Assembly: GCA_963825585.1 (NCBI GenBank)
Contig: CAWGTX010000001.1
Location: 669,613-733,612, forward strand
From: an uncultured bacterium
GTDB lineage: Bacteria; Actinomycetota; Acidimicrobiia; Spongiisociales; ZC4RG35
Direction: 5' to 3'
DNA length: 64,000 bases
A model generated the notes under the pieces. That model searched no databases. It was not told the DNA's origin and worked only from the letters and a program-made list of their open reading frames with translations. The translations under genes and the position numbers were made by a program. Position 1 is the first letter of the stretch; every line of letters starts with the position of its first letter. Positions 6,733 to 50,986 of this stretch are shown in pieces.

Positions 6733-7389
6733 ATGAACAGGTTTTCGAGTACGTTCGAACGCCCGAAGCGGCGAAATCCGTCGGGTGCGGTCTTTTGGGT
6801 CTTCGTTTTCCTGGCGATTTCGATCCAGCCGCAGGTCCCGGCCTTCGCCCAGGTGTCGCCGTTCGACGACACCGCAGGATCGGTCCATGAGGCCGACATC
6901 GCCCTCCTCGCCGAGTGGGGGATCACCAAGGGTTGCACCGACTCCTCGTACTGCCCGGAGGTTTCGGTGACTCGAGGTCAGATGGCAGCATTCATGCGGC
7001 GATCGTTCGTGACACCCACCAGCCAATACGACTACTTCGGTGACGACGAAGACTCGGTGTTCGAAGCCGACATCAACTCGATCACGGGTGTGGGCATCAC
7101 CCAAGGATGCAATCCGCCCACCAGTTCGCAGTACTGCACCGACGACGTGCTCACCCGGGGTCAGATGGCTGCCTTCCTCCGTCGCACGCTGAGCCTCCCG
7201 GCAGGGCCCGACGTGTTCTCCGACGACGAGAACTCGGTGTTCGAGGCGGACATCAACGCTCTCGCCGCCGCCGGCATCGCCAAGGGGTGCTCCGATGGCC
7301 GGTTCTGCCCCGATGACGTGATCACGCGAGCACAGATGGCCAGCTTCCTGGTCAGGGCACTCGACCACCTCGGATGCCGGGGGGCATGA
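6733..7389 (+). CDS. Small secreted protein made of three SLH (S-layer homology)-like repeats
   Basis: Signal-like N-terminus. Three ~55-aa repeats F-DD--SVFEADI--L---GI--GC-----CP---VTRGQMAAFL-R-L match the SLH consensus (F.D....w...aI..L...GI..G.....F.P...iTRaE.A..L.ral), with an added conserved Cys pair. Confidence 0.7.
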   Translation: MNRFSSTFERPKRRNPSGAVFWVFVFLAISIQPQVPAFAQVSPFDDTAGSVHEADIALLAEWGITKGCTDSSYCPEVSVTRGQMAAFMRRSFVTPTSQYDYFGDDEDSVFEADINSITGVGITQGCNPPTSSQYCTDDVLTRGQMAAFLRRTLSLPAGPDVFSDDENSVFEADINALAAAGIAKGCSDGRFCPDDVITRAQMASFLVRALDHLGCRGA

Positions 7390-10251: not shown

Positions 10252-11072
10252 AGCGCATCAAGGCGAAGCTGTGGAGGATGAAACAGACCTCTATGGCCTT
10301 CCTCCGTGCCGACATCGTCGAAGAGGCGAGTTATCCGATGTCGCTGGTGCTCGGCCAGGCCGGCATCGTTGTGCCGATCTTCGTGTCGTTCTTCATCGCC
10401 GACCTCGTCGGTGACTCCAGGGAGGTGGGTGGCGACTACCTCACGTTCGCCACCGTCGGGCTGGCCATGAGTGCCGCCCTCCAGGCCACCCTGCAGGGGT
10501 TCGGAACCCGGCTCCAACAGATCCAGGACCGCGGTCTGTTCGAGTCGATCCTGGTGGAGCCGATCAAATGGTTGTGGATGCCGGTCGCCATGAACCAGTG
10601 GAACATGTTCCGGGGGTTCATCAACGCCATCTTGTTGCTGCTCATCGGCAGTGCCCTCGGCGCCGACATCCGGCTGGCGGGCATCGGCGCCACTGTGGTG
10701 ATCGTGTTGGCGGGGATGGCGGCGGTCAGTTCGATCGGCATCCTTTCTGCCAGCCTGATGGTGCTCGCCAAACGTTCCCAGCCGGTGGTGGTGCTGTACG
10801 GCCTGGCCGCATCGATCTTCGGTGGCGCCCTGTTCTCGTTGTCGCAGCTGCCCACCTGGCTGCAACCGATCAGCTACCTCTTCCCGCACACCTACGTGCT
10901 CAACGGCGTCCGTTCGGCGTTGATGGACGATCCGGGCACCTTCGTGATGCCGGTTCCGGATGCGCTGCTCGGACTCGGCATCACAACCCTGGTGGTGGGC
11001 GGCATCGGGCTGTTCCTGTTCCAGAAGTCGTTGCAGACCGCCCGCGAACTCGGCCTGCTCAGCGGGTACTGA
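10248..11072 (+). CDS. ABC-2 type transporter permease (Wzm-like)
   Basis: Six-TM hydrophobic profile typical of ABC-2 permeases. ATGA overlap with the ATPase gene. Confidence 0.8.
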   Translation: MKRIKAKLWRMKQTSMAFLRADIVEEASYPMSLVLGQAGIVVPIFVSFFIADLVGDSREVGGDYLTFATVGLAMSAALQATLQGFGTRLQQIQDRGLFESILVEPIKWLWMPVAMNQWNMFRGFINAILLLLIGSALGADIRLAGIGATVVIVLAGMAAVSSIGILSASLMVLAKRSQPVVVLYGLAASIFGGALFSLSQLPTWLQPISYLFPHTYVLNGVRSALMDDPGTFVMPVPDALLGLGITTLVVGGIGLFLFQKSLQTARELGLLSGY

Positions 11073-11073
11073 C

Positions 11074-11940
11074 ATGACGGCCGTCAAGGAGCTCGCCCGC
11101 CAGAAGCTCTCGGTCAACGCCCGGCACCAGATCTCGCTCCTCCGGGTGAAATCACGGATGGCATGGCCGTCCATGGGCATGCTCCCGAACGTGCTCGTGA
11201 TCGGAGCCCAGCGGGCCGGCACGTCGTCGATCTACCGCTACCTCGGATCACATCCCGACGTGTTCGCCTCACTCCGCAAGGAGGTCGAGTACTTCTCGAC
11301 GCGGATGTCGATGGGGGAGCGCTGGTACCGGGCCCATTTCCCGTTGATCACCCGCCCCAAGCTGGCGTTCGAGGCAACCCCCGACTATCTGCTGCATCCA
11401 AGGGCGGCCGAACGTGCCGCCGCACGCATCCCCGACCTCAAAGCGGTGGCGCTCCTCCGAAGCCCCGTCACCCGGGCCTTCAGCCAGTACGGCCATCAGC
11501 GTCGTTTGAACAAGGAGCCGCTGAGCTTCATCGATGCGCTCCGGGCCGAGCCCGAGCGCATCGCCGGCGACCTGGATCGACTGGCCGCTGATCAGGACCA
11601 CCCCGGCATCGAAGTCCGCGTCCACGGCTACATGGAACGGGGCCGCTACGCCCCGCAACTCCAACGCTGGGTCGACGCCCTGGGACGCGAGCGCATCCAC
11701 GTGATCCGCACCGAAGACCTGTGGGCCGACCCGGCCGGCACGTACACCGGCCTGCTCGACTTCCTCGGCCTGCGCCACGTGATGCCCTCTTCCCTCGGCG
11801 AGAACTACAGCTACGTGAGGGACACCCCCAAACCCGAGAAGGCGATGCCGCCAGAAGCCGAGGCCCACCTCCGCCAGCAACTCCAGCCCGAGATCGAAGC
11901 GATCGAGGCGATGCTCGGGCGGCAGATGGGGTGGCTCTAG
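11074..11940 (+). CDS. PAPS-dependent sulfotransferase family protein
   Basis: LPNVLVIGAQRAGTSSIYRYL 5'-PSB motif. ATG at 11074 lies 2 nt after the permease stop. The longer ORF start at 10960 would overlap the permease. Confidence 0.8.
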   Translation: MTAVKELARQKLSVNARHQISLLRVKSRMAWPSMGMLPNVLVIGAQRAGTSSIYRYLGSHPDVFASLRKEVEYFSTRMSMGERWYRAHFPLITRPKLAFEATPDYLLHPRAAERAAARIPDLKAVALLRSPVTRAFSQYGHQRRLNKEPLSFIDALRAEPERIAGDLDRLAADQDHPGIEVRVHGYMERGRYAPQLQRWVDALGRERIHVIRTEDLWADPAGTYTGLLDFLGLRHVMPSSLGENYSYVRDTPKPEKAMPPEAEAHLRQQLQPEIEAIEAMLGRQMGWL

Positions 11941-12335: not shown

Positions 12336-12629
12336 CTAGCTGCGGGCGGCGAAGTCGCCGATGCCGAGGATCTGGTGGAGGTCCCAGTCGATCAGCTCGA
12401 AGCGGCATTCACCGCCGTCGGTGAACGGGTCGGCGGCTGCGATCCTGTGCGCCTCCTCCGCTGTGTCGGCCCTGATCAGGTAGAGGCTGACTGAGCGGTC
12501 TCGACTGGGACCCGACATCAGGACCGTGCCGGCCAGGTGCTGGTCTCTCATCCAGTCGAGATGCTCTTGCAGGGTCACCGTCCATTCGGAACGAGGGCGC
12601 AACGGACGACGCAGGCAAAGGAAGTACAC
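12336..12629 (-). CDS. YciI-like (YCII-related) domain protein
   Basis: 97-aa ORF with a typical YciI stretch, ...HLAGTVLMSGP...ADTAEEAHRIAAADPF... Confidence 0.65.
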   Translation of the reverse strand: MYFLCLRRPLRPRSEWTVTLQEHLDWMRDQHLAGTVLMSGPSRDRSVSLYLIRADTAEEAHRIAAADPFTDGGECRFELIDWDLHQILGIGDFAARS

Positions 12630-23620: not shown

Positions 23621-23818
23621 CGGTGAGCAGCATAGAGGTAGTGGGTCCTACGGGAAGTGGTTCCTCCGGGAGGAGACTTGGACTGGTCTTGGTGTTCGCT
23701 TCACCTTCCGACCCGCACAATGTTGGCTCCTCGGCCAGGGACGTGGGGGGACCACGATGAAGCCGGCGGGGAAGCCTTGGGTCACCGGGGTTGGGGCGAA
23801 CGCTCGACGGGAGATGCC

Positions 23819-25009
23819 ATGTGGAAGCGGTTTCGACGGTTCGGCGGCGCGGCGGGGATGGTGGGTCTCGCCGCTCTGGTGGTGCTCGGAGTGACGCCGG
23901 TTCCGGCCACGGCCGCACCGGGTGACGTCGGTGTGCTGGGTTGCTCGAACACTGCCATCGCTGCCATCGGGTACAACCAGGTCTCGGATGTCGGTCGGTT
24001 GTGGCCCGCGTCCACCGACGACAACCCCTTTGCCGATTACTGGGGCAACGACATCGTGAAGTGGGCTGACGTGAACGGTCAGGGTCGCAGCGCTTGGGCA
24101 GCGTTCGATGCCGAGCTCGGTGCCAACCCCTCCACAACCGCCGTGTGGTTCCAGGTGTGCGTCCGGGCCGAGACTCCGGGCTCGACCGTCACCGTCGACA
24201 CGATCGTCGCCGAGATCCGGCGACGGCTCCCGCAAGTCACCGTCTACGCCAGTCCTCTCGACGACACTCCCTCGTGCCTGATCGGTGATCCGGACCTTTC
24301 GCTCGAGTACGTGGACCATCTCGTGGACACCGGTCAGGCCTTGCGCGGTCCGACTTTGAGTCCTCTTCCGCCCGACCAGGTGAAGGGTTGCCACGCCTCC
24401 GGCGACGGCATCGACCTGCACGGTGCCGATCTGGCGGCCTTCTTCGACGATGGTGCACTACCCCAGCCCGGCCCTGAACCGAGCGGATTCGTCGACGTCG
24501 GATCGGACCACGTGTTCTCGGCCGATATCGCCTGGCTGGCCGCCCGGGGGATCACCGTTGGATGCAACCCCCCCTCCAACGACCGCTTCTGTCCGGAAGA
24601 ACCGGTGTCACGCGGCCAGATGGCGGCGTTCCTCGCACGTGCGCTCTCGCTGCCCCCATCCGAAGTCGACGCATTCGCAGACGACGCCGGCTCTGTGTTC
24701 GAAGCCGAGATCGACGCCCTCGCCGCAGCCGGCATCACGTCCGGATGCTCGTCGCAGGGCTTCTGTCCCGACGATCCGGTCACGCGGGCGCAGATGGCGA
24801 CGTTCCTCGTCAACGCCTTCGACCTGACCGGGGGCGAGGGGACCGACCTCTTCAGCGACGACAGCGGCGTCCACGAGTTGGACATCGACACGCTCGGAAC
24901 CTCGGGCGTGACCCAGGGCTGCAACCCGCCGCTCAACGATCGCTACTGCCCCGACGATCCCGTCACGAGAGGCCAGATGGCCGCATTCCTGCATCGCGCC
25001 GAGGGGTGA
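23819..25009 (+). CDS. Secreted protein with unknown ~200-aa N-terminal domain and four C-terminal SLH-like repeats
   Basis: Signal peptide MWKRFRRFGGAAGMVGLAALVVLGVTPVPATAAPGD, then four repeats of the type FVDVGSDHVFSADIAWLAARGITVGCNPPSNDRFCPEEPVSRGQMAAFLARAL. Confidence 0.7.
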   Translation: MWKRFRRFGGAAGMVGLAALVVLGVTPVPATAAPGDVGVLGCSNTAIAAIGYNQVSDVGRLWPASTDDNPFADYWGNDIVKWADVNGQGRSAWAAFDAELGANPSTTAVWFQVCVRAETPGSTVTVDTIVAEIRRRLPQVTVYASPLDDTPSCLIGDPDLSLEYVDHLVDTGQALRGPTLSPLPPDQVKGCHASGDGIDLHGADLAAFFDDGALPQPGPEPSGFVDVGSDHVFSADIAWLAARGITVGCNPPSNDRFCPEEPVSRGQMAAFLARALSLPPSEVDAFADDAGSVFEAEIDALAAAGITSGCSSQGFCPDDPVTRAQMATFLVNAFDLTGGEGTDLFSDDSGVHELDIDTLGTSGVTQGCNPPLNDRYCPDDPVTRGQMAAFLHRAEG

Positions 25010-26196: not shown

Positions 26197-27567
26197 GTGT
26201 ACGACATCGTGGTCGTCGGAGGTGGCCCTGGCGGGTACGCCTCGGCGCTGTACGCGCACAATTTCGGCTTGTCGGTCGCCCTCGTCGATGAGGAGCGTCC
26301 CGGTGGCACCTGCCTCATCCGAGGATGTATCCCCGCCAAACAGTGGATTCAGATCGCCGAGGTGTTCGCAACGGTTCGGCATGCCTCCGACTTCGGGGTG
26401 ATCACCTCCGAGCCCCAACTCGACTGGGATGCTGCCATCGCCAGGAAGAACCAGACGGTCGAGGGGCTGCTCAAAGGTCTGTCCGGTCTGCTGAAGCAAC
26501 GCAAGGTGGACGTGATCGACGGGTTCGGTCGCCTCGACGGTCCCGGCAAGGTGGTCGTTTCCGGGGCCGAGGGCGAGCGGACCGTGGCGGGTCGGGCGAT
26601 CATCATGGCCACCGGTTCGCATGCCCGCTCGATCCCGCCATATCCGGTGGACGGCGTTCGGATCGTGACGTCCGATCACGCCCTCGACTGGCCGGCCCGA
26701 CCCGACCGGGTCGCCATCGTCGGCGGCGGTGTGATCGGGTGTGAGTTCGCCAGTCTGCTCACAGACCTCGGCTCCGAGGTCCACGTGTTCGAGGTGATGG
26801 ACCAGATCCTGCCCGGCGGTGACCCCGATGCTGCGAAGCAGCTCGAGCGCCAGCTCTCACGCCGCGGCGTGAAGTTCCACGTCGGGATCGGGGTCGGCGA
26901 ACCGAAGGTCGGCGCCGGAGCTGTGGTGGTGCCGTTCGGCGACTCCTCGGTGGAGGTCGATGTCGTCCTCATGGCGGTCGGGCGTGGCCCCAACACCGCC
27001 AACGTGGGCTTCGATACCACCAAGGCGGTTGTCGACCGTGGCTTCGTCGTCGTCGATCTGGCGACCATGCAGACCGCCGAGCCGGGCGTCTACGCGGTGG
27101 GCGACATCGTGGCCGGCTCGCCCCAGCTCGCCCACGTCGCCTTCGCGGAGGCCATCGCCGCCGTGACCCACATCGCCACCGGGCGGCTGGCGTCGGTCGA
27201 TTACCGGGCGATCCCCCGGGTCACCTACACCCATCCCGAAGTCGCGGAGGTGGGCCTCACCGAGGCGCAGGCGCGCGAGTCGGGTGTCGAGGTGGAGGTC
27301 ACCAAACATGCCTTCAACGGTGTGGGCAGGGCGATCATCATCGGACAGAACCAGGGCTTCGTGAAGGTCATTGCCGAGAAGGATGGACCGATTCTCGGTG
27401 CTGCGGTGGTCGGCCCCCAGGCGGGGGAGATGATCCACGAGCTGATGTACTCGGTCGGGTGGGAGGCCCTCCCCTCCGAGGCCGCGGCATTCATCCACGC
27501 TCATCCCACCCTCTCGGAGGCCGTGGGGGAGACACTCATGGGCGCGGCCGGCAGGGCCCTGCACTGA
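26197..27567 (+). CDS. lpdA: Dihydrolipoyl dehydrogenase (E3)
   Basis: FAD motif DIVVVGGGPGGYASAL, redox disulfide GGTCLIRGCIPAK, C-terminal HAHPTLSEA dimerisation motif. GTG at 26197 preceded by AAAGGACGGA. Confidence 0.85.
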   Translation: MYDIVVVGGGPGGYASALYAHNFGLSVALVDEERPGGTCLIRGCIPAKQWIQIAEVFATVRHASDFGVITSEPQLDWDAAIARKNQTVEGLLKGLSGLLKQRKVDVIDGFGRLDGPGKVVVSGAEGERTVAGRAIIMATGSHARSIPPYPVDGVRIVTSDHALDWPARPDRVAIVGGGVIGCEFASLLTDLGSEVHVFEVMDQILPGGDPDAAKQLERQLSRRGVKFHVGIGVGEPKVGAGAVVVPFGDSSVEVDVVLMAVGRGPNTANVGFDTTKAVVDRGFVVVDLATMQTAEPGVYAVGDIVAGSPQLAHVAFAEAIAAVTHIATGRLASVDYRAIPRVTYTHPEVAEVGLTEAQARESGVEVEVTKHAFNGVGRAIIIGQNQGFVKVIAEKDGPILGAAVVGPQAGEMIHELMYSVGWEALPSEAAAFIHAHPTLSEAVGETLMGAAGRALH

Positions 27568-27586: not shown

Positions 27587-29502
27587 ATGGCGACAACGGT
27601 GAGCATGCCCCAGTTGGGTGAGACGGTGACCGAAGGGACGATCCTTCGGTGGGCGAAGCAGGTCGGCGACACGATTTCGGCCGACGAGGTGCTGGTGGAG
27701 ATCTCGACCGACAAGGTCGACACCGAGGTGCCTTCGCCGGCGTCCGGTGTGGTGTTGGAGATCCTGGTCGCCGAAGGTGACACGGTGGCTGTGGGCACTG
27801 CCCTCGCCCTGATCGGTGAGGCCTCCGATGCGACCGGTGGCTATCCGAGTCCTGAACCCGAGCCCGCGAAGGCGCCCGCCCCGGCAGAGTCCGCCGCCCA
27901 GCCTGCCCCCGATTCGGCAGCAGCCACCGCTGCCGAGCCGGCGGCGCCGGCCCCCGCCCCGGAACCCCAACCCGCCGCTCAACCGGCCGCCTCAGCCCCC
28001 GCCGCCACCGTGACGATGCCCCAGTTGGGTGAGACGGTGACCGAAGGGACGATCCTTCGGTGGGCGAAGCAGGTCGGCGACACGATTTCGGCCGACGAGG
28101 TGCTGGTGGAGATCTCGACCGACAAGGTCGACACCGAGGTGCCTTCGCCGGCGTCCGGTGTGGTGTTGGAGATCCTGGTCGCCGAAGGTGACACGGTGGC
28201 TGTGGGCACTGCCCTCGCCCTGATCGGAGAGGCCTCGGGCTCGACCGGAGCTGCCCCCCAGCCGGCGCCCCCTGCCCCTGAGACAGCCCCCCAGCCGGCC
28301 TCCGAGCCGGCTCCCCAGGAGGCAGGGCCGACGCCCCCGTTCAGGGGGAGGGCCAGTCGTCGTCCCAGGCGGCGCCGTCAACCGAACCCTCGCCCGCCCC
28401 CGCCGCCGCATCAGGGGAAGGATCCGCTCCTGGGGGCCGTCTGCTGTCGCCGGTTGTCCGCCGACTCGTTCGCGAGAACGGCCTCGACGTCGATCGCATC
28501 CCCGGAACCGGCGAGGGTGGTCGCATCACCCGGAAGGACGTCGAGTCCTTCGTCGCTGCCGCCGCTTCCGCACCGGCGGCCTCGGCACCGGCAACTCAGA
28601 CTCCCGCCGCCGAGACCACCCAGCCTCCACCGGCCGAGGCGCCGGCTGCTGCTCCCGCCGCTCCTGCCGCCGAGTCGACTCCGGCAGCCGCTCCCGTAGC
28701 CTCTGTGTCTGCCCCGGCCTCGGTGCCGGCTCCGACGCCGGCCGCTCGCCCCACCCCGCCCACACCGGTGGCCGCATCGGGTGGCGACGAGACGGTCGAG
28801 TTGGACAGACTCCGGGTGCGTATCGGCGAGAACATGATCCGGGCCAAGCAGACCGCGGCCCACGTGTGGACCTCGGTGGAAGTCGACTACGAGCGGGTCG
28901 AGCGAGTTCGGCAGCGTCACAAGGACGCGTTCAAGGCCGCCGAGGGCTTCTCGCTCACGTACCTCCCGTTCATCGCCCGGGCCACCGTCGACGCCCTTCA
29001 GGAGTTCCCGGTGGTCAACTCGTCGTTCTACCTCGAAGAACGCAAGGCCGTGTTCCACAGGGCCGTGAATCTCGGCATCGCCATCGACCTCAACCAGAAG
29101 GGCCTGGTGGTGGCCTCGGTCAGGTCGTCCGACGGTCTCCGGCTCGTCGGGATCGCCCGCCAGATTCGCGCTCTGGCCGACAAGGCACGGGACGGGAAGC
29201 TCGACCCCGACGATGTGTCCGGCTCCACCTTCACCATCACCAACCCGGGGCCGTTCGGATCGTTCATGTCGGCGCCGATCATCAACGTCCCCAACACCGG
29301 CATTCTGTCGACCGAGACGGTCACCAAGCGACCGGCGGTCGTGACGGGCGCAGACGGTGAGGACGTGATCGCCATCCGTCACATCGGCTACCTGGGCCTC
29401 ACCTGGGATCACCGGGCCTTCGACGGCTCCACCGCCGTCCTGTTCCTACAGCGCATCAAGCAGAACCTGGAGAGTTGGGACTGGGAGCAAGAACTCGCCT
29501 GA
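27587..29502 (+). CDS. 2-oxoacid dehydrogenase E2 acyltransferase (two lipoyl domains, PSBD, catalytic domain), reading frame interrupted near 28330
   Basis: Lipoyl domains ([11 protein letters not shown]) in the 27587 frame. PSBD ([39 protein letters not shown]) and catalytic domain (DHRAFDG) continue in the frame of ORF 28705..29502. The frame change sits at a C5 run (gacgcccccgtt) and is repaired by one extra C. Confidence 0.8.
27605..28227 (+). repeat. Perfect 212-nt tandem duplication (27605-27816 and 28016-28227) encoding identical lipoyl domains
   Basis: 100% nucleotide identity between the two copies, offset 411 nt. The mirrored antisense ORFs 26857..27798 and 27979..28209 share an identical N-terminal peptide. 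Confidence 0.85.
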
Positions 29503-30060
29503 TGGCGAAGAGCTCCTATGTGGCCGAGATCCGATCGTTGGTCGGATCTGGCCCCTCATGCTGTCGTCTGCGGCGGCAGTGGTGCTGGACGAGGCCGGTC
29601 GCATCCTGCTGAGCCGCCATGAGGTCGGTGACCGATGAGTGATCCCGGGCGGCATCATCGATCCCGAGGAGAATCCGGCGCAGGGCCATGGTGCGAGAGG
29701 TGAAGGAGGAGACCGGCCTGGACGTGGTACCAGTCCGGCTGGTGGGTGTGGGGCGGCACACCGGAGCAATGGTCAGCTCGAGGCGATTCCCAAGTCGATG
29801 GCGGTGATCGCAGTCGTACTCGACGGAACCATCATCACCGCCTGTGGATCAACGCCACCTACAACGCCATCTCCGACGCCGATGGCAAGCCGTACCAGGT
29901 CGTCAAGTTCGCCTCGATCGAGTCCGCCAGGGAGGGCGACGCCGGGCGGCCTCGACCGCTGCATCGGCGGTCGACGATTCCTCCCAGGACACGACGGCAG
30001 AGGGCGCCGAGTTGCGGGCGATGGCAGACTGACGCTGTCATCCGGAGCGCCCCCTCCTGC
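29502..30060 (+). pseudogene. NUDIX hydrolase pseudogene (at least 3 frameshifts)
   Basis: Nudix-box pieces spread across three frames: [17 protein letters not shown] / PLMLSSAAAVVLDEAGRILLSRHEVGDR / VIPGGIIDPEENPAQ / MVREVKEETGLDVVPVRLVGVWGG. The ATG overlaps the E2 stop (TGATG). Confidence 0.5.
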
Positions 30061-30194
30061 GACGTAGTACCCGCCCGGGTCCTGATGAGGTGTCGAGTTC
30101 CTGGGCTTCGCGTTCCCTGCTGAGACCGTCTGGGGTCCCGACCGACGATTGCACGCTGCCTTCCCATGTGACCGCAGTCGGGCATAGTGACGGG

Positions 30195-31559
30195 GTGCGC
30201 GTCGTTCTGGCTTCACTCACAGTGCTGTCGCTCATGTCCGTTGCAGGTCAGGCGGCCGCTGACGACTACCCGTCCGGCCGTTTCGATGATGACGACCGCC
30301 ACCCGGCCGAGGTGGCGATGAACGTCCTCGCCGACTGGGGCGTCGTCGACGGGTGCAACCCGCCGGCCAACACCCACTCGTGTCCGGACTCGTCGGTCAC
30401 CAGGGCCGAGGCGGCCAAGATCGTGGTCGAGATCGGTGAGTTCACCGGAGGGCTACTGGAGGGCGGTGGCGGCGAGACTGATCGTTTCGTCGACGACGGA
30501 GAGGCGCTCGGTGGCGGTGCGGAGCGATACTTCGAAACACTGGCCGGCATCGCTGCGCTCCATGGTTGCGATCCGCCCACCAACAGACGCGTCTGCCCCG
30601 ATCGAGGGGTCACACGGGGCCAGATCGCCAAGATTCTCGTCGCCGCCTACGGACTCGAAGCACCCGCCGACCACGACGCTCCCTGGGCCGACATCAACGG
30701 GGAGTTCTACGCCGATGCCGCTCGCATCGCCTCCTACCACGGGATGTGGGACGAGCGTTCCCGCTTCGACGGTCACCAGCGTGCGACCCGCGGCGAGCTG
30801 GCGACGGCAGCGCTCGAGGCCTCCGGGACGACGGTGTGCCGCCCAGACCCGTTCACCCAGGCCCACGTGGCCGAATTGGAGGATCGGTATCCGGGAAAGC
30901 TGATCACCGCCCACGTCTACGACACCAGGACCGGATGCCACTACCGGCTCTCGCACGACAATCGCCAGCGCACGGCATCGGTGTTCAAGGTGATGGTGAT
31001 GGCGGGCACGCTCCTGGAAGCACAGGACGACGGACGTGCCGTGTCCACCTGGGAGCTGAGCCAACTGGATCCCATGATCACCGAATCGGCCAACGGTCCG
31101 GTCCGCTCGCTTTGGTACTCGTTCGGTGCGGCACCCTGGTACCGCAATCAGGGTCGAATCTTCGGACTGGAGGACACCACGGTCCGCGGCGACGACGGCA
31201 GCGCCTGGGGCCTCACCACCACGTCGGCTGCCGATCAGGTCGACCTGATCCGGCAGGTTCTCCTCGGAGACTGGGGTCCTCTTTCCGCCGAGTCGCAGGC
31301 CCTTGCGATCGACCTCATGACCGACGTGGTGCCCAGCCAGACCTGGGGCGTGACCGCCGGAGTCCCAGACGGATGGACCGTCGCCCAGAAGAACGGCTTT
31401 GCGGGCATCACCATCAACTCGGTCGGCTGGGTCGACGAACCGGGGTCCAGCAACGGTTACGTGGTCGCCATCCTGAGCCAGGGATGGCCCGATCACCCCA
31501 GCGGCATCGCGGCTGTGGAGCGAGTCAACCGGTGGGTGGCGGAGGCGATGACGGAGTGA
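30195..31559 (+). CDS. Secreted protein: N-terminal SLH-like repeats fused to class A beta-lactamase-like / serine-hydrolase (PBP-like) domain
   Basis: Signal VRVVLASLTVLSLMSVAGQAAA (GTG 30195, uncertain). SLH-like repeats (GVVDGCNPPANTHSCPDSSVTRAEAAKIVV; ALHGCDPPTNRRVCPDRGVTRGQIAKILV). Serine-hydrolase motifs SVFK (SxxK), SAN (SxN) and KNG (KTG-like). Confidence 0.6.
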   Translation: MRVVLASLTVLSLMSVAGQAAADDYPSGRFDDDDRHPAEVAMNVLADWGVVDGCNPPANTHSCPDSSVTRAEAAKIVVEIGEFTGGLLEGGGGETDRFVDDGEALGGGAERYFETLAGIAALHGCDPPTNRRVCPDRGVTRGQIAKILVAAYGLEAPADHDAPWADINGEFYADAARIASYHGMWDERSRFDGHQRATRGELATAALEASGTTVCRPDPFTQAHVAELEDRYPGKLITAHVYDTRTGCHYRLSHDNRQRTASVFKVMVMAGTLLEAQDDGRAVSTWELSQLDPMITESANGPVRSLWYSFGAAPWYRNQGRIFGLEDTTVRGDDGSAWGLTTTSAADQVDLIRQVLLGDWGPLSAESQALAIDLMTDVVPSQTWGVTAGVPDGWTVAQKNGFAGITINSVGWVDEPGSSNGYVVAILSQGWPDHPSGIAAVERVNRWVAEAMTE

Positions 31560-31719: not shown

Positions 31720-33396
31720 GTGAGTACCACTCTGAGGGTTCGTTGGCTGGGTCGGCTTCCGTACAAGGAGGCGTGGGATCTCCAACGCGCCATTCACGAA
31801 GGGCGGGTAGGCGGCCGGACCGCTGACGACTACCTGCTACTGCTCGAACATCCGCATGTCTACACCATCGGGCGCAACGGCAACGGGTCGAACCTCCTGA
31901 TCGACGAGGCGGACCTTGGTGACATCGGCGCCGAGATCCACCGGGTGGATCGTGGGGGTGACATCACCTATCACGGTCCCGGTCAGCTGGTCGGATACCC
32001 GATCATCCAACTCGACAATCCGATGCAGGTGGTGCCGCACGTCCGGCGGCTGGAAGAGGTGCTGATCGCCACCCTGGCCGAGTGGGGGATAGCGGGCTGG
32101 CGGGAAGAGGGACTGACCGGAGTGTGGACCGAGCGTGGAAAGGTCGCCGCCATCGGCGTGCGCGTGGCCCGCCAGGTCACGATGCACGGGTTCGCGCTCA
32201 ACCTCGATCCCGACATGGCGTACTTCCAGCGGATGAACCCATGCGGGATCGCAGATCGACCCGTGACCTCCGTCGCGGAGCTGCTGGGGAGCCGGATCTC
32301 ACTCGAGGAGGCCACCGAGACGCTCATCCCGCAGTTCGCCCGGGTCTTCGGTGCCGGACAGCCCGAGGTCCAGAAGGCCGCGTTCGTACGCGGCCAGGGC
32401 CGCCAGCGTGAGTTCGAGGTCGACCGCCTCCTGGCCGACGGGACGTTCTCGCTCGAGAAGCGAACGGCCGAACCGGTGCTCATCAGCGGTCGGCTCCCGG
32501 GAGAGCCGGCGAGGCCGGATTGGATGAAGGTGACCGCCCGGATGGACGGCGACTATCTCGAGCTCAAGAAGATGATGCGGGGCATGGAGCTGCACACCGT
32601 CTGCGAGGAGGCGGGTTGTCCGAACATCTTCGAGTGCTGGGGGATGGGCACCGCCACGCTCATGATCCTCGGGGACAAGTGCACCCGGGCCTGTTCGTTC
32701 TGCAATGTCACCACGGGGCGGCCCACCGAACTCGACGTGATGGAGCCGTTCCGGGCCGCCGGTGCCGTCGCCTCGATGAACCTCAAACATGCCGTCATCA
32801 CCTCGGTCAACCGTGACGACCTCGACGACGGCGGTTCAGGCATCTTCGCCCAGACCATCGCAGAGAGTCGTCGGCGTTCTCCGGGAACCGACATCGAGGT
32901 CCTCATCCCCGACTTCAAGGGGGAAGTCGAGCCGCTCGAGACGTTGATGGCGGCCCGACCGGACGTCCTCAACCACAACACCGAGACGGTGTTGCGACTC
33001 CAGCGCGACATCCGGACGTCGGCCAACTATGGGCGATCGTTGGCGCTGCTGGCGAGGGCGCGCTGGCTCAATCCCGACGGCCTGACCAAGTCGGGGCTGA
33101 TCGTCGGGATGGGTGAAAGCGACGAGGAGGTCCTGGGGACTCTGGCCGATCTGAGGGCGGTGGGGGTCGACATCATCACCATCGGGCAGTACCTGCGGCC
33201 GACAGCACGTCACCGTCCCATCCACCGGTACGTCCACCCGGATCAGTTCGCCCGGTTCAAGGAGTACGGCGAGGCGATCGGTATTCCCCACGTCGAGTCG
33301 GGCCCATTGGTCCGGTCCAGTTATCACGCCAAGGACTCGGTCGAGCGGCTGACACCCGACCGACAATTCACACCAGTGACCATCGGAAGGCGCTGA
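31720..33396 (+). CDS. lipB-lipA: Octanoyltransferase LipB fused in-frame to lipoyl synthase LipA (single 558-aa ORF)
   Basis: The N-terminal ~220 aa is LipB (RVDRGGDITYHGPGQLVGYPI). The C-terminal ~320 aa is LipA (CEEAGCPNIFEC and radical-SAM CTRACSFC). About 50 aa of linker joins them, with no in-frame stop between. Confidence 0.75.
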   Translation: MSTTLRVRWLGRLPYKEAWDLQRAIHEGRVGGRTADDYLLLLEHPHVYTIGRNGNGSNLLIDEADLGDIGAEIHRVDRGGDITYHGPGQLVGYPIIQLDNPMQVVPHVRRLEEVLIATLAEWGIAGWREEGLTGVWTERGKVAAIGVRVARQVTMHGFALNLDPDMAYFQRMNPCGIADRPVTSVAELLGSRISLEEATETLIPQFARVFGAGQPEVQKAAFVRGQGRQREFEVDRLLADGTFSLEKRTAEPVLISGRLPGEPARPDWMKVTARMDGDYLELKKMMRGMELHTVCEEAGCPNIFECWGMGTATLMILGDKCTRACSFCNVTTGRPTELDVMEPFRAAGAVASMNLKHAVITSVNRDDLDDGGSGIFAQTIAESRRRSPGTDIEVLIPDFKGEVEPLETLMAARPDVLNHNTETVLRLQRDIRTSANYGRSLALLARARWLNPDGLTKSGLIVGMGESDEEVLGTLADLRAVGVDIITIGQYLRPTARHRPIHRYVHPDQFARFKEYGEAIGIPHVESGPLVRSSYHAKDSVERLTPDRQFTPVTIGRR

Positions 33397-37007: not shown

Positions 37008-38000
37008 TCAGCTGATCGTGACCACGATGCGGGTTCGGCGAATCAGCACATCCTGGTGGTACCAGCGGCCCTCGATCGAGAAGCTACCCGACGCCGGCGT
37101 GACGACCGTGTGGTTCCAGTTTCTCGTCACAACGGCTCCTGTCGACGTCTCGACCGGGGCCGGTCTCGGCCGTTGGGTGCCGTCGATGAGCAGATCGAAA
37201 CGGGTCGTCGAGGATCGGAAAGCCCCTTCCTCGCCTCCGACGAACGGAAGGACGTGGTCCCATCCCTCCGCCACCGAGATGCGCCGGTTTGGTCCACTGG
37301 TGGCGCTCCCGGAGCATGCGGTGCCGTCTTTCGAGCAGAACCAGCCTCGCGCCAGGTCGACCAACGGGGGCCGTTGGGGAAGCGCCAGCGCGCGTGCGAG
37401 AAACGATGCCATCTGTTCCCGTGTGACCGAGTTGGATGGGCAGTAGCGATCGTTGTCTGGTGGATTGCAGCCGACCGTGATCCCCGCCGTGGCGAGTCGT
37501 TCGATGTCGGCCTCGAACACCGAGCCGTTGTCGTCGACGAAGTCCACGTCGCCGCGGTCGGTGAGATCGAGAGCCCGCACCAGAAACGACGCCATCTGGC
37601 CTCTCGTGACCGGGGCATTCGGGCAGAACAGGGTGTTGCCGGGCGGGTTGCATCCCCGCGAGATGCCGGTGGCTGCGAGCCACTCGATGTCCCCCTCGAA
37701 CACGGTCCCCGTCGCGTCCGAGAACGAGGCGTCAGGCCCGATTGCGACACTGCCCTCGAATCCGCGTCGGAGGAAGGCTGCCATCTGTCCCCTCGTGACC
37801 GTCGCCTGCGGACAGAACCTGTCGGAGGTGGGTGGATTGCAGCCGACCGTGACACCGGCCGCGGCGATCGCCTCGATTGCCGACTCGTGCACCGAGGTGT
37901 CGTCGTCGGTGAAGCGTCCGGACAGGCGAGCGGCGCCGGCCGGTGCCACCGACCAGAGGAGTGCACTCACGACCACCAACGCGAGAGTCCGGGACTTCAC
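37008..38000 (-). CDS. Secreted protein with three SLH-like repeats and ~110-aa C-terminal domain of unknown function
   Basis: GTG at 38000 (VKSRTLALVVVSALLWSVAPAGAA signal), in a GTGA overlap with the upstream gene. Repeats as in 6733..7389. The N-terminal 237 aa of track ORF 37008..38711 is Arg-rich artefact. Confidence 0.65.
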   Translation of the reverse strand: MKSRTLALVVVSALLWSVAPAGAARLSGRFTDDDTSVHESAIEAIAAAGVTVGCNPPTSDRFCPQATVTRGQMAAFLRRGFEGSVAIGPDASFSDATGTVFEGDIEWLAATGISRGCNPPGNTLFCPNAPVTRGQMASFLVRALDLTDRGDVDFVDDNGSVFEADIERLATAGITVGCNPPDNDRYCPSNSVTREQMASFLARALALPQRPPLVDLARGWFCSKDGTACSGSATSGPNRRISVAEGWDHVLPFVGGEEGAFRSSTTRFDLLIDGTQRPRPAPVETSTGAVVTRNWNHTVVTPASGSFSIEGRWYHQDVLIRRTRIVVTIS

Positions 38001-38452
38001 GGAGCGATCTCCAGTCCCGCCAGCACAGTGTTGATCTGGCCGATCACGTCGGCGCGGTCGACATGCGACCCGACCACGATGTAGAGGCAGAAGGCACGCC
38101 CGGCATGAGTGAAGAACCGTTGCACGCCCGACATACCGGTAACGCGTGTGTGGAGGACGTCGCGGTCGAAGTCGTCGGTCGACACGAACCGGGGAGCCCC
38201 CTCGGTTGCGAACAGGGCCGTGCCCACGCTCTCGGGCCCGTACTCGTAGAGCACGACGAGCGCGTCGCCGGGTTCCATCACCATGATGGCACCACCACCG
38301 AAATCGCCCCGCCCGGGGGGTAGCGGGAAGTTGGCCAGATGGGCCACCGTCGGTCTGACCGCACCGTCCTCGAGCAGGTTGAGGCCCTCGTCGAGCTGGC
38401 CCTCCCAGCCGGCAGGGAGGTCGGCGCCGATGCCGCGTCCGTTGAGTCTCAT
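37997..38452 (-). CDS. Hypothetical protein (152 aa)
   Basis: ATG MRLNGRG confirmed at 38452. 4-nt overlaps with both neighbours, so it is embedded in the operon. Confidence 0.4.
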   Translation of the reverse strand: MRLNGRGIGADLPAGWEGQLDEGLNLLEDGAVRPTVAHLANFPLPPGRGDFGGGAIMVMEPGDALVVLYEYGPESVGTALFATEGAPRFVSTDDFDRDVLHTRVTGMSGVQRFFTHAGRAFCLYIVVGSHVDRADVIGQINTVLAGLEIAP

Positions 38453-45629: not shown

Positions 45630-45683
45630 GAGACGAAGCTACGGTCTAGCAGCTCTCGCCATTTCGGATATCCTGTGCTGCTC

Positions 45684-46589
45684 ATGTCGTACCAGCTGGA
45701 CCACCTGCGCGCGCTCGAAGCCGAGTCGATCCACATCATCAGGGAAGCAGTGGCCGAGGGCGAACGCCCCGTGCTGCTGTTCTCCGGGGGCAAGGACTCG
45801 GCTGTCGTTCTGCGCCTCGCCGTCAAGGCGTTTCACCCTGCCCGCCTTCCGTTTCCGGTCATGCACGTCGATACCGGGCACAACTTCCCCGAGGTGATCG
45901 AGTTCCGCGACCGAACCGTCGCCGAGCTCGGCTGCACCCTCATCGTCGCCTCCGTACAGGAGTCGATCGATGCGGGTCGTGTCGTCGAGGAGACCGGCCC
46001 CCGGGCCAGTCGCAATCGACTCCAAACCGAGTCGCTGCTCTCGGCGATCGAGGAGAACCAGTTCGACGTCGTGTTCGGGGGTGCCCGGCGTGACGAGGAG
46101 AAGGCCCGTGCCAAGGAGCGGGTGTTCAGCTTCCGGGACGACTTCGGTCAGTGGGATCCGAAGAACCAGCGGCCCGAGCTTTGGAATCTCTACAACGCCC
46201 GCCATCGCAAGGGTGAGCATCTCCGGGTGTTCCCGATCTCGAACTGGACCGAGATGGACATCTACCAGTACATCCTCGACGAGCAGATCGACCTTCCGTC
46301 GGTGTACTTCTCCCACACCCGCCGTGTGTTCGAGCGGGACGGCATGCTCATGGCCGAGAACCCCCATCTCACCCTCATGGACAGCGAAGAGATCTTCGAG
46401 CGGGTGGTGCGGTTCCGCACGGTTGGCGACATGACCTGCACCGGCGCATTCGAATCGGTCGCCGCCAACATCGAGGACATCATCATCGAGGTGGCGGCCA
46501 GCCGTGTCACCGAACGTGGCGCCAGCCGGGCCGATGACAAGACGACCGAGGCCGCCATGGAGGATCGCAAGCGTGAGGGGTATTTCTAG
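45684..46589 (+). CDS. cysD: Sulfate adenylyltransferase subunit 2
   Basis: PAPS-reductase-fold PP-loop LFSGGKDSAVVL. Alternative GTG start at 45675. Confidence 0.9.
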   Translation: MSYQLDHLRALEAESIHIIREAVAEGERPVLLFSGGKDSAVVLRLAVKAFHPARLPFPVMHVDTGHNFPEVIEFRDRTVAELGCTLIVASVQESIDAGRVVEETGPRASRNRLQTESLLSAIEENQFDVVFGGARRDEEKARAKERVFSFRDDFGQWDPKNQRPELWNLYNARHRKGEHLRVFPISNWTEMDIYQYILDEQIDLPSVYFSHTRRVFERDGMLMAENPHLTLMDSEEIFERVVRFRTVGDMTCTGAFESVAANIEDIIIEVAASRVTERGASRADDKTTEAAMEDRKREGYF

Positions 46590-47870
46590 ATGACGCCCGA
46601 GATCTCCCAGCGGATGGAACTCGTCCGCCTCGCCACCACCGGCTCGGTGGACGACGGCAAGTCGACTCTCATCGGTCGACTGCTGTACGACACCAAACAG
46701 ATCTTCGAAGACCAGATGGAGGCGATCGAAGAGGCCTCCAGGCGACGGGGCACCGACTACGTCGACCTGGCGCTGCTCACCGACGGACTCCGGGCCGAAC
46801 GCGAACAGGGCATCACCATCGATGTCGCCTACCGGTACTTCGCCACGCCCAAACGGAAGTTCGTGCTGGCCGACACCCCCGGACACGTCCAGTACACCCG
46901 CAACATGGTGACGGGTGCATCGACGGCCGATATCGCCCTCATCCTCATCGACGCTCGCAAGGGCATCCTCGAGCAGACGCGTCGCCATTCGTTCATCGCC
47001 TCGCTCCTCCAGGTGCCCCACCTGGTGCTGTGCGTGAACAAGATGGACCTGGTCGATTACAGCGAGGAGCGGTACGACGAGTTGGTGGAGGAGTTCCGCC
47101 AGTTCGCCACCCGCCTCGACATCACCGACCTGCGTTTCGTGCCGGTGTCGGCGCTGGTGGGTGACAACATCGTCGACGAGAGCCTCAACACCCCGTGGTA
47201 CAAGGGCCCATCGGTCCTCCACCTTCTCGAGGACATCCACGTGGGTAGCGACCGAAACATGATCGACTGCCGGTTCCCGGTGCAATATGTGATCCGTCCC
47301 CACACGATGGAGCATCAGGACTACCGGGGCTATGCCGGGCAGATCCAGGGTGGGGTCTTCAAGAAGGGCGACGAGGTCATCGTGCTGCCCGCCGGATTCA
47401 CCACCAGGATCGCATCGATCGACACGTTCGACGGTCCTGTCGAAGAGGCGGCGCCGCCGGCCTCGGTGGTGATCCGGCTCGAGGACGAGATCGACATCAG
47501 CCGCGGCGACATGATCTGTCGCCCCCACAACCAGCCGCACGTCGGCCAGGATCTCGACGCCATGGTCTGCTGGCTGTCGGACACGGCAACGCTGCGTCCT
47601 GGCGCCAAGTACGCCATCAAGCACACGAGCCGTTGGGCCCGTGCGATGGTCAAGGACGTCCAGTACCGGCTGAACATCAACACGCTGCATCGCGACGAGG
47701 AGGCCGATTCGATCGGGCTCAACGAGATCGGCCGGATCCGTCTCCGGACCACCGTGCCGATGTTCTTCGACGAGTACCGCCGCAACCGTGACACCGGATC
47801 GTTCATCCTCGTCGACGAGGCCACCAACAACACGGTGGGAGCGGGCATGATCACCGGGCCAGCGGTCTGA
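46590..47870 (+). CDS. cysN: Sulfate adenylyltransferase subunit 1 (GTPase), not fused to APS kinase
   Basis: G1 GSVDDGKSTL, G3 DTPGH, G4 NKMD. Starts 1 nt after the cysD stop. Confidence 0.9.
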   Translation: MTPEISQRMELVRLATTGSVDDGKSTLIGRLLYDTKQIFEDQMEAIEEASRRRGTDYVDLALLTDGLRAEREQGITIDVAYRYFATPKRKFVLADTPGHVQYTRNMVTGASTADIALILIDARKGILEQTRRHSFIASLLQVPHLVLCVNKMDLVDYSEERYDELVEEFRQFATRLDITDLRFVPVSALVGDNIVDESLNTPWYKGPSVLHLLEDIHVGSDRNMIDCRFPVQYVIRPHTMEHQDYRGYAGQIQGGVFKKGDEVIVLPAGFTTRIASIDTFDGPVEEAAPPASVVIRLEDEIDISRGDMICRPHNQPHVGQDLDAMVCWLSDTATLRPGAKYAIKHTSRWARAMVKDVQYRLNINTLHRDEEADSIGLNEIGRIRLRTTVPMFFDEYRRNRDTGSFILVDEATNNTVGAGMITGPAV

Positions 47871-47878
47871 GAATGCAG

Positions 47879-47966
47879 GCTGCTAGCTGCTGGCTTCTGG
47901 CTGCTGGCTGGAAGCCAGGGGCGGCGAGCAGGAGCGTCTCTGGCTGGTAGCTGGTAGCCAGTAGCT
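47879..47966. repeat. Intergenic repeat element of the GCTGGCT family (arms GCTGCTAGCTGCTGGCTTCTGGCTGCTGGCTGG ... CTGGCTGGTAGCTGGTAGCCAGTAGC) between cysN and cysC
   Basis: Same motifs as the elements at 25075, 31561 and 42889. Confidence 0.5.
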
Positions 47967-47989
47967 CGCCGCTGAGTATTGGAGTCTTC

Positions 47990-48580
47990 ATGTCTGTGAC
48001 CGAGAACGTGGTTTGGCATCCGGGGGCGGTGTCGCGCGAGGAGCGGGCTGCCGTCACGGGTGGTCTGGGCGCCACGGTGTGGCTGACCGGGCTGTCGGGC
48101 TCGGGTAAGTCGACGATCGCCCACCGTACCGAGCAGGCGTTGGTGGCGATGGGGCGGGCCGCCTACGTGTTGGACGGCGACAACCTCCGTCACGGGCTCA
48201 ACGGCGATCTCGGGTTCACGTCGGGTGACCGAACAGAAAACGTACGACGGGTGGGCGAGGTGGCCCGGTTGATGGCCGACTCGGGTCTCGTGGTGCTGGT
48301 ACCGGTGATCAGCCCGTACCGGGCAGACCGGGACCGGGTTCGACGAATCCACCAGGTCGCCGACGTGCCGTTCCACGAGGCATTCGTCGACACGCCGATC
48401 GAGGTGTGCGAGCAGCGTGACCCCAAAGGCCTCTACAAGAAGGCCCGGGCAGGCGAGATCAAGGGTTTCACCGGGATCGACGATCCGTACGAGGCGCCGT
48501 TGCAGCCCGAGTTGGTGCTTCGCACTGCCGAGCTGAGCGTCGACGAAGCCGTCCGGGCGATCATCGACCATCTGGCATGA
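47990..48580 (+). CDS. cysC: Adenylylsulfate (APS) kinase
   Basis: Walker A LTGLSGSGKSTIA and the APS-kinase fold. Confidence 0.9.
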   Translation: MSVTENVVWHPGAVSREERAAVTGGLGATVWLTGLSGSGKSTIAHRTEQALVAMGRAAYVLDGDNLRHGLNGDLGFTSGDRTENVRRVGEVARLMADSGLVVLVPVISPYRADRDRVRRIHQVADVPFHEAFVDTPIEVCEQRDPKGLYKKARAGEIKGFTGIDDPYEAPLQPELVLRTAELSVDEAVRAIIDHLA

Positions 48581-48716: not shown

Positions 48717-50399
48717 ATGGGGAACACGCTTCAGTCGAGCATCTACGAACTGGCCCAGGCCGACCCGGATGCCAGGGCACTCGGGTTCTACGCGGCTGAC
48801 CGGACCTGTGATTGGATCAGTCGCGGTGAGCTGCTCTCCGGCGCCGAGGCTGCCGCCGCCCGGCTTTCGGAGATGGGTCTGGTCGAGGGCGCCGTCTGCG
48901 TCCAGGTGCCCTACAACGATCGGTTCGCCGCCGAAGTACTACTGGGCACGCTCGCACTGGGAGCGCTGCCCCTACTGGTGGCACCTCCGGCCATCCAGGG
49001 CCTGAACTCGAGCCTGCCCGACATCCTTCACGGCATCATCGAACGTACATCGGCACCCGTCGTGGTGGCGGCCGACACCGTCTCCGGGATGCGCGAAGAC
49101 CTCATGGCCCGGCACCCCGGCACCACGTTCGCGTTCGGAGCCGGCGAGTTCGATTCGGCCGGCGGCAGCGTCGACTGGGTGATGCGGGGTAGCGACGATC
49201 TGGCCGGCCTCCAGCTCACATCCGGCACCACCGGCTTCCCCCGGATCTGTATGTGGCGTCAGGAGAACGTGATGGCGGCCCTCGACGGGATGGCCACCGC
49301 CATGGACGTGAGCAGCGAGGACACCTACCTGAACTGGACCCCGCTCTATCACGACATGGGACTCATGAACAACTTCATGCTGTGCCTCACACGGGGTATC
49401 CCGCTGGTCATGATGAGCCCGTTCGACTTCGTCAAGCGTCCCGTCTCGTGGATGCGCGGTGTGTTCGACACCGGCGCCACCATCACCTGGTCGCCCAACT
49501 TCGGGTTCGCCCTGGCCGCCCAGCGGGTCCGGAGCGCCGAGATGGACGGCATCAGCCTCGACCACGTCCGTGGTTTCTGGAACGCCGCCGAGCGCATCCA
49601 CTACGAGACCATCGTCGCCTTCAAGGAGCGGTTCGCCCCGTTCGGACTTCGGCCCGACGCCGTGAAGACCAACTTCGGCTGCGCCGAGAATGTCGGTGGC
49701 GCCACTTTCACGCCACCGAACGAGGAGGTGCCGGTCGAGCACATCGACGCCAACACACTCCACGAGGATCAGGTGGCGAACGTGGTCGCCAAAGGCGAGT
49801 TCTCGGTGCCGACGGTCGGCTGTGGGAAGGCCCACCCCGGCATCACGATCCACATCCTCGACGACATCGGCAAAGACCTGCCCGACGGTCACGTGGGGTA
49901 CCTCGCCCTCGACACGGCCTCCCGGATGGAGGGCTACCTGCACGACCCCGAGGCCACCGCCGCCGCTTTCCACGGTGATCTGCTCAAGACCGGCGACCTC
50001 GGCTACCTCCGCGACGGAGAGTTCTTCTGGACGGGCCGGGCCAAGGAACGGATCGCCGTCCGAGGCCGCAAGATCGATCCCTCCGACTTCGAGGCGGCGC
50101 TCCTCAAGATCCCCGACCTCCGGACCGGCTCGTTCGCAGCGTTCGGGACCGACGACGCCAAGCTCGGTACACAGCGGGTCGTGATCATCAGCGAGGTGCG
50201 CGACGAACGCGAACAGACCGCAGACGAGATCAGGGCCGCCGTGAAGCAGGCCGTGTTCGAGCGTCTCGGTGTGGGTGTCGACGACGTCGTCCTCGTCGCG
50301 CAGGGAACACTGACCAAGACGTCTTCGGGCAAACGTCGTCACCGGCACTTCGCCGAGATGTACGAGCGTGGCGGACTGGCGGAGTACGAGATCGCCTGA
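48717..50399 (+). CDS. Fatty-acyl-AMP ligase (FAAL)-like adenylating enzyme
   Basis: LQLTSGTTGFPRICM, TGDLGY and GRAKERIAVRGRKID motifs, with the FAAL-type insertion region; 560 aa. Confidence 0.75.
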   Translation: MGNTLQSSIYELAQADPDARALGFYAADRTCDWISRGELLSGAEAAAARLSEMGLVEGAVCVQVPYNDRFAAEVLLGTLALGALPLLVAPPAIQGLNSSLPDILHGIIERTSAPVVVAADTVSGMREDLMARHPGTTFAFGAGEFDSAGGSVDWVMRGSDDLAGLQLTSGTTGFPRICMWRQENVMAALDGMATAMDVSSEDTYLNWTPLYHDMGLMNNFMLCLTRGIPLVMMSPFDFVKRPVSWMRGVFDTGATITWSPNFGFALAAQRVRSAEMDGISLDHVRGFWNAAERIHYETIVAFKERFAPFGLRPDAVKTNFGCAENVGGATFTPPNEEVPVEHIDANTLHEDQVANVVAKGEFSVPTVGCGKAHPGITIHILDDIGKDLPDGHVGYLALDTASRMEGYLHDPEATAAAFHGDLLKTGDLGYLRDGEFFWTGRAKERIAVRGRKIDPSDFEAALLKIPDLRTGSFAAFGTDDAKLGTQRVVIISEVRDEREQTADEIRAAVKQAVFERLGVGVDDVVLVAQGTLTKTSSGKRRHRHFAEMYERGGLAEYEIA

Positions 50400-50986
50400 T
50401 GGCTGCCTTCGACCCGGCTGATGGGCTGTTCGTGGCCCAGTTCGATCGGCCCTCCGATCTGGAGCCGGTGAATCTACGGGCACTTTCACCCATGCAGCGG
50501 GCGCTCATGGTCATCGACGGGACCGTCACCAAATTCCTCGAGGCGTACTGCATGGAGCCGATCGAGGTCACAACGCTCGGCCAGGCCGAGCAGACGCTCG
50601 AAGTCGGCCAGGAGTGGCTCGATGTGAAGGCGGGGCGCGAGGTGCTCGCTCGTCACGTGACGCTCACCGGCGGATACAGCGGTGACCTGTACGCCTATGC
50701 CATCTCGCTCACCAACCCCGCCGCCATCCCCCGCGACATTCGTGCCGCCATGGAGATCCAGGGGGGCAGCGTCGGACGCATCCTCCTGTCGTCGCGCGTG
50801 GAGCAGCGTCGAGAAGTGCTGTGGTACGGCAAGGAATCGGCCGACGGCCTTCCCGACGCGCTCCGTGACCAGTACGACGGCGACCTGCTGAGCCGGGCCT
50901 ACCGCATCATGATGGGTGGGCGGCCGGTGATCATGATCATCGAGAAGTTCCCGTTCCGGGCCGACACCGCCCCGAACCACGACTGA
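50399..50986 (+). CDS. Chorismate-lyase-like (UbiC/UTRA fold) protein
   Basis: 195-aa ORF. DGTVTKFLEAY resembles the UbiC DSMTKRFEQ motif, and RREVLWYG resembles its WLREILL region. TGATG overlap with the FAAL gene. Confidence 0.4.
   Translation: MAAFDPADGLFVAQFDRPSDLEPVNLRALSPMQRALMVIDGTVTKFLEAYCMEPIEVTTLGQAEQTLEVGQEWLDVKAGREVLARHVTLTGGYSGDLYAYAISLTNPAAIPRDIRAAMEIQGGSVGRILLSSRVEQRREVLWYGKESADGLPDALRDQYDGDLLSRAYRIMMGGRPVIMIIEKFPFRADTAPNHD

Follow-up and report, generated by a model that had tools for sequence, protein, structure and literature searches.

Lipoyl-domain repeats apparently homogenised by gene conversion, and a probable one-base error, in the SucB/DlaT-type E2 gene of an uncultured Acidimicrobiia bacterium

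The window (the whole stretch of 64,000 nt that was analysed) comes from an uncultured Acidimicrobiia bacterium and contains its lpdA-E2 operon. The lpdA gene (positions 26197 to 27567, forward strand, GTG start codon) is intact and encodes the E3 component, dihydrolipoyl dehydrogenase. Its product matches the TIGR01350 model over the full length (459 bits; cut-off, 409), contains the Pfam domains Pyr_redox_2 and Pyr_redox_dim, and shares 96% amino acid identity with its counterpart at the related locus L071 (dN/dS 0.037). Directly downstream lies the gene for the E2 acyltransferase, the stop codon of which is overlapped by the ATG of a NUDIX hydrolase pseudogene (29503 to 29790, forward strand). 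Positions 31720 to 33396, on the same strand, encode a fusion of octanoyltransferase (LipB) and lipoyl synthase (LipA) of 558 amino acids, in which NCBIfam recognises LipB at residues 3–210 and lipoyl synthase at residues 265–544; the product modifies the lipoyl domains of E2. The fusion is encoded in a single frame (one HSP) in 99 related Acidimicrobiia loci. No NCBIfam model for a LipB-LipA fusion was matched above cut-off; an exception model exists for the LplA-LipA fusion. The neighbourhood is presumably shared with the dlaT-lipB-lipA region of M. tuberculosis, where lipB and lipA are also found downstream.

As deposited, the domains of E2 do not lie in a single continuous frame. The first-frame part (27587 to 28338, forward strand, beginning with the ATG at 27587) covers both lipoyl domains, linker 1, and the initial half of linker 2, and Pfam detects Biotin_lipoyl twice in it. 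Lipoyl domain 1 (∼27596–27817) carries its lysine codon, AAG, at 27713–27715 within the motif TDKV, a DK(A/V) turn; lipoyl domain 2 (∼28007–28228) has the same motif, with the lipoyl-lysine codon at 28124–28126. Linker 1, between them (27818 to 28006, forward strand), is rich in alanine and proline and bears no relation to linker 2. In the second frame follow the peripheral-subunit (E3) binding domain (28441 to 28545, forward strand; residues 286–320 of the repaired protein according to Pfam), which is conserved with L071, and the catalytic acyltransferase domain (28783 to 29502, forward strand, up to the stop codon; Pfam 2-oxoacid_dh at residues 400–631, positions 28783–29478) with the active-site motif DHRAFDG, of the DHRxxDG type, at 29407–29427. 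The initial annotation had proposed that one added C restores a continuous E2, and this was confirmed: the protein repaired by one base has 638 amino acids and scores 537.5 bits against the SucB_Actino model TIGR02927 (equivalog cut-off, 423.45). Its domain order is lipoyl–linker–lipoyl–linker–E3-binding–linker–catalytic, and Pfam finds two Biotin_lipoyl domains, E3_binding (3.6e-13), and 2-oxoacid_dh (3.7e-63) in it. By these matches, E2 is an actinobacterial acyltransferase of the SucB/DlaT type, ordinary in kind. Domain order and DHRxxDG motif are those of the known SucB_Actino/DlaT proteins (DlaT of M. tuberculosis, Rv2215; AceF of C. glutamicum), from which the locus differs in that the ORF is broken by 1 nt, in that lpdA lies directly upstream, and in that lipB and lipA are fused. 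Nothing at the E2 locus amounts to a new kind of system.

The best relatives of the window are uncultured Acidimicrobiia, with full-length E2 proteins of at most 70% identity. The closest genome, the metagenome-assembled genome (MAG) JBHJOH01, to which the loci L031 and L071 belong, is collinear with the window over positions 17686–39024 at 82–87% nucleotide identity. Its short-read assembly breaks within E2, in the Ala/Pro linker 3 between the E3-binding and the catalytic domain (where L071 ends and L031 starts), and the E2 gene is a recurrent assembly breakpoint. No sequence of the same species was recovered by exact-protein look-ups (with six window products, among them the E2 pieces of 370 and 265 amino acids, lpdA, lipBA, and a CysN-like protein), by a scan of GTDB genome contigs (best match 82–87% at the nucleotide level, a different species), or by a scan of metagenome contigs, in which no closer match turned up. 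A protein search with the hypervariable linker and E3-binding region returned, as the best match, 95% identity over half of the query, again from JBHJOH01.

The lipoyl domains are encoded by an exact direct repeat. Positions 27605–27816 and 28016–28227 (forward strand) are identical in 212 of 212 nt, as the initial annotation had stated, with a start-to-start spacing of 411 nt, and this identity is beyond chance. Similarity reaches slightly further, over 27596–27837 and 28007–28248 (242 nt, 97%), and then stops abruptly: in consecutive 30-nt bins across the two copies, identity is 37, 37, and 93%, then 100% in six bins, then 80, 40, and 53%, the linker flanks (37–53%) being at chance level. 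The same holds for all 14 genes examined in this way, in each of which identity between the copies drops to chance (13–60%) exactly at the domain borders. That the two lipoyl domains themselves are identical, as was initially claimed, is true for a core of 70 residues; at the protein level their ends differ, both at the start (TVSMPQ versus TVTMPQ) and in the residues following LIGEAS. A very recent duplication had been named as one possible source of the identity. Had a 411-nt unit been duplicated in tandem only recently, linker 1 would also stand behind copy 2, but the linker that actually follows copy 2 is unrelated to linker 1; such a duplication was therefore rejected. Moreover, the clade already has two domains: in the comparison of lipoyl-domain copy number with orthologues that had been suggested at the outset, the Acidimicrobiia MAG relatives were also of the two-domain type.

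To compare the copies within and between genomes, 222-nt domain segments were taken from every related locus having two lipoyl domains (related loci are denoted by L-numbers, the window sequence by WIN, the first and second domain by d1 and d2). Nucleotide identity between d1 and d2 of the same gene was 100% in L010, 99.1% in L004, 98.6% in the window, 95.9% in L071, 95.5% in L002, 93.2% in L001 and L008, and 89% in L003 and L012, and ranged between 68 and 76% in L005, L006, L007, L009, L048, and L049. In a neighbour-joining tree, the copies grouped by genome in WIN, L071, L004, L010, and L008, and by position (d1 with d1, d2 with d2) in L005/L009/L048/L049 and in L003/L012. Thus, d1 of the window is 98.6% identical to d2 of the window and just 90.1% identical to its orthologue, d1 of the sister L071. 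As both genes have two domains and in both the gene's own copies are the closer ones, homogenisation must have taken place after the split, and in both genomes. Selection at the protein level cannot account for this pattern: dS between the window and the sister genome is 0.47–0.63, yet the two copies show no difference across 212 nt. Within-genome pairing, the spread of identities, and tracts limited by the domain borders together lend good support to ongoing gene conversion, which the initial annotation had listed among its alternatives. With high confidence, the repeat would therefore appear, from these comparisons, to be an old duplication homogenised by gene conversion, that is, a case of concerted evolution.

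Could the identity of the copies, or their number, be a product of the assembly, because polishing homogenised the copies or a loop in the assembly graph was miscounted? For short reads, an exact repeat of 212 nt with a period of 411 nt does constitute an ambiguous loop, the short-read contig of the closest relative ends inside the E2 gene, and L012 contains a run of N in linker 1. However, pairs of copies with 93–100% identity recur across independent assemblies made with different tools (the Flye-style long-read assemblies L001, L002, and L004; contig L010), and linkers 1 and 2, being unique sequences, anchor exactly two copies. An origin in the assembly is therefore very unlikely, and so is the assembly collapse or expansion that had initially been considered as the source of the identity, given the 93–100% found in independent assemblies of relatives.

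Gene conversion thus offers the better account of the repeat. An old tandem duplication of lipoyl segments would have been homogenised again and again by intragenic conversion, presumably via homologous recombination of the direct repeats, which lie at a spacing of 411 nt; the last such event in the window genome would have been recent enough to leave 212 identical nucleotides, the non-homologous linkers being free to evolve. In a tree of the catalytic domain, genes with one and with two lipoyl domains are interleaved and at least five changes of state are required, which fits occasional unequal exchange between the repeats. In the open-access literature, a search for reports of lipoyl domains evolving in concert or by gene conversion returned nothing relevant. 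The homogenisation is, nevertheless, a process of a known kind and not a new one. As in concerted evolution of intragenic and tandem repeats in general, the copies within a genome of the window type are closer to each other than to their orthologues, synonymous sites are included, and the tracts end at the limits of homology.

The textbook case of tandem lipoyl domains is AceF (E2p) of E. coli, which has three such repeats. There, as in the window, the lipoyl repeats are similar at the DNA level and separated by Ala/Pro-rich linkers; the copies in aceF of E. coli K-12 are, however, ∼79% identical, compared with 100% over 212 nt in the window, and homogenisation is demonstrably recurrent in the lineage of the window. 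The window is thus an extreme case, but of a pattern already known. What it adds is a clean and measurable instance of concerted evolution within one essential gene, with identities from 68% to 100% across sister lineages. Conversion also explains the frequent breaks of short-read assemblies in the E2 gene, and because of it phylogenies of lipoyl domains cannot be read as orthology.

The second feature of the E2 gene is the break in its reading frame. The ORF starting at the ATG 27587 (mod3=2) remains open to 28699 but encodes Arg/Pro-rich junk beyond ∼28340; the E3-binding and catalytic domains belong to another frame (mod3=1), whose open stretch runs from 28281 to 29502. The latter frame contains no ATG, GTG, or TTG before 28705, and the downstream part could thus not be made as a separate functional protein. 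The change from mod3=2 to mod3=1 can be placed only within ∼28327–28340, an interval that starts where the Arg-rich stretches of the downstream frame end and stops ahead of the Phe-Arg-Gly junk of the upstream frame, and the only homopolymer in it is a run of five C. This run (28334–28338) begins 107 nt past the end of the repeat and forms, with five G at 28344–28348, the inverted repeat CCCCC-GTTCA-GGGGG (28334 to 28348, forward strand), the probable site of the missing base. In a tblastn search with the E2 of a relative, the frame switched between 28324 and 28333; an alignment to the closest relative is no more precise, because the linker has diverged too far, with gaps of 9 and 11 nt upstream and two placements that score about equally. 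A switch of frame at a C5 run ∼100 nt behind the repeat, ahead of the E3-binding and catalytic domains, is what the initial annotation had described, and it was borne out.

We consider it fairly probable that the break is an error of sequencing, consensus calling, or assembly, and that the real gene would be longer by one base (in the simplest case, C6 in place of C5) and encode the continuous E2 of 638 amino acids. The site is a homopolymer within a perfect hairpin of five G:C pairs, in a GC-rich linker of low complexity, and errors of base calling and consensus are typical of such contexts. The sequence behind the break is conserved: the catalytic domain is 97% identical to that of L031 in amino acids and 84% in nucleotides, with a dN/dS of 0.038 (lpdA: 0.037), which shows that strong purifying selection has acted on E2 downstream of the break. 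No second lesion was found in the 1.17 kb that follow the break. Nor was the break shared with any relative, the full-length ones being continuous; the closest one, L071, reads QAPVQAETQ across the linker without interruption.

Frame-broken E2 genes do occur elsewhere in public data, and their distribution is telling. They account for 5 of 110 related genes and are scattered over the tree (106 of the 111 gene copies scored were continuous, with the repaired window counted in). Four of the five are found among the 15 genes from MFD MAGs with contigs named “contig_N”, which we take, from this naming, to be nanopore assemblies, compared with one among the 95 others (Fisher p = 0.001); the fifth, in L012, is due to a stretch of N within an (EP)n linker. 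The same MFD MAGs also have frame-broken lipBA genes. Sporadic E2 breaks in public data therefore track the assembly technology. The individual MFD breaks affect E2 in L050, L056, L064, and L066 and lipBA in L004, L024, L056, L059, and L066; with up to two breaks in a single gene, gene calls at these loci are unreliable. The window resembles the homopolymer indel artefacts of long-read MAGs in having a deficit of one base, in a G/C run, in a conserved gene, and its uninterrupted passage through the 212-nt repeat suggests a long-read or hybrid assembly. It has, however, ∼10-fold fewer breaks than the MFD MAGs (1 in ∼55 genes, compared with ∼1 in 4 E2 genes). Three observations count against an artefact. 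First, the ∼54 other ORFs of the window have full-length Pfam matches or match a relative in a single frame, and among the 142 G/C runs of five or more only the C5 run breaks a gene, which means that indel errors are rare (at most ∼1 per 64 kb). Second, such a break is absent from all 94 contiguous assemblies of relatives that are not MFD MAGs, so that an error would be unusual if the window was assembled from short reads. Third, real decay is present next to E2, in the NUDIX pseudogene.

A generally error-ridden assembly was rejected, as a Viterbi scan of codon usage, Pfam, and matches to relatives agree in showing only E2 and the NUDIX gene as broken. Three further switches of the Viterbi path were not taken as frameshifts: the one at 39833 reflects adjacent overlapping genes, the one at 25959 lies in a region that the 346-aa ORF of a relative matches in one frame, and the one at 50396 falls where two ORFs (48717–50399 and 50399–50986), each with a near-full-length Pfam match, share one base.

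The absence of the base may instead be real, a very recent frameshift that is either fixed in the strain or a variant caught in the population consensus; we regard this as possible, if rather doubtful. E2 would then be truncated behind lipoyl domain 2 and inactive, its E3-binding and catalytic domains remaining untranslated, and the cell would need another E2 paralogue or a different route to acetyl-CoA and succinyl-CoA. As no start codon precedes 28705 in the second frame, the break would truly inactivate. The base-level quality of the window looks high, and wherever a flanking gene has a counterpart in the relative, the two match in a single frame, E2 and the NUDIX gene excepted. Backup E2s may exist, as some related MAGs have two related E2 loci (for example, L020/L023 and L050/L059), which are either paralogues or duplicates introduced by binning. 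Decay does occur in this operon: in comparison with the intact 159-aa orthologue of L031, L001, and L002, the adjoining NUDIX gene carries four or more lesions, a nonsense substitution among them, and is a true pseudogene. The lesions comprise a 1-nt deletion at ∼29547, a change of TGG to TGA at 29636–29638, a 1-nt insertion at ∼29684, and a 2-nt deletion at ∼29745; the HSPs lie in three frames, the 3′ half cannot be aligned, and Pfam finds the NUDIX domain in a translation repaired by hand. This decay is far older than anything in E2, however, and the two cannot be one event. With a dN/dS of 0.038 and no further lesion in 1.17 kb, a mutation in E2 could only be extremely young relative to the decay of the NUDIX gene. 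It would also have hit a SucB_Actino equivalog of a central-metabolism complex, situated between an intact lpdA and an intact lipBA, and none of the relatives has it. If it is real nonetheless, a free-living actinobacterium would have lost an enzyme of central metabolism only very recently.

It is least probable of all, to a degree that makes it hardly credible, that the cell overcomes the break by slippage in transcription or by −1 frameshifting of the ribosome, or that it is a reversible phase-variation switch between C5 and C6. The shift required is indeed −1, the homopolymer at which it lies adjoins a small hairpin, and reversible homopolymer frameshifts have precedents in actinobacteria; the 7C tract in glpK of M. 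tuberculosis is one. Yet the site contains no heptamer of the form X XXY YYZ (the codons are ACG CCC CCG TTC, and the tRNA in the P site would have to re-pair with GCC). The 106 nt downstream do not fold into a stable structure either: their minimum free energy of −43.3 compares with a mean of −47.6 for shuffled sequences (z = +1.19), and 179 of 200 shuffles were at least as stable. Five C are few for slippage or phase variation, contingency tracts usually consisting of at least 7 G or C, and nothing is conserved: in every relative, the closest included, the frame continues across a linker of unrelated sequence. A genuinely reversible C5, with the C-run in the hairpin acting as an on/off switch or as a site of low-level −1 slippage for the single SucB/DlaT-type E2, is in itself highly improbable; it would enable a subpopulation to shut down the pyruvate/2-oxoglutarate dehydrogenase complex.

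Of the alternatives that the initial annotation had offered for the break, a homopolymer error or a genuine lesion, both are thus still the right ones, and the evidence leans towards the error; the slippery site is unsupported, as there is no heptamer, no stable downstream structure (as the shuffles above indicate), and no such break in relatives. With a technical error as the favoured reading, the gene is best annotated as one SucB/DlaT-type E2 with a probable one-base error, rather than as two genes or, with any confidence, as a pseudogene.

A number of observations concern the remainder of the window. At 45675–48580, 3985–5238, and 10960–11940, genes for sulfate activation (PAPS-reductase-like/CysD, CysN-like GTPase, APS kinase) are found along with genes for glycosyltransferases, polysaccharide deacetylases, and a pair of sulfotransferases. 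This set suggests the synthesis of a sulfated cell-envelope polysaccharide. Between 11936 and 13245, ∼1.3 kb score as non-coding, except for a small ORF on the minus strand (12336–12629); scans of the whole window, this segment included, for tRNAs and Rfam families gave no match. The protein encoded at 30090–31559 has a long N-terminal region followed by a beta-lactamase-like domain. S-layer-homology (SLH) domains are present in three proteins, encoded at 6733–7389, 23657–25009, and 37011–38120.
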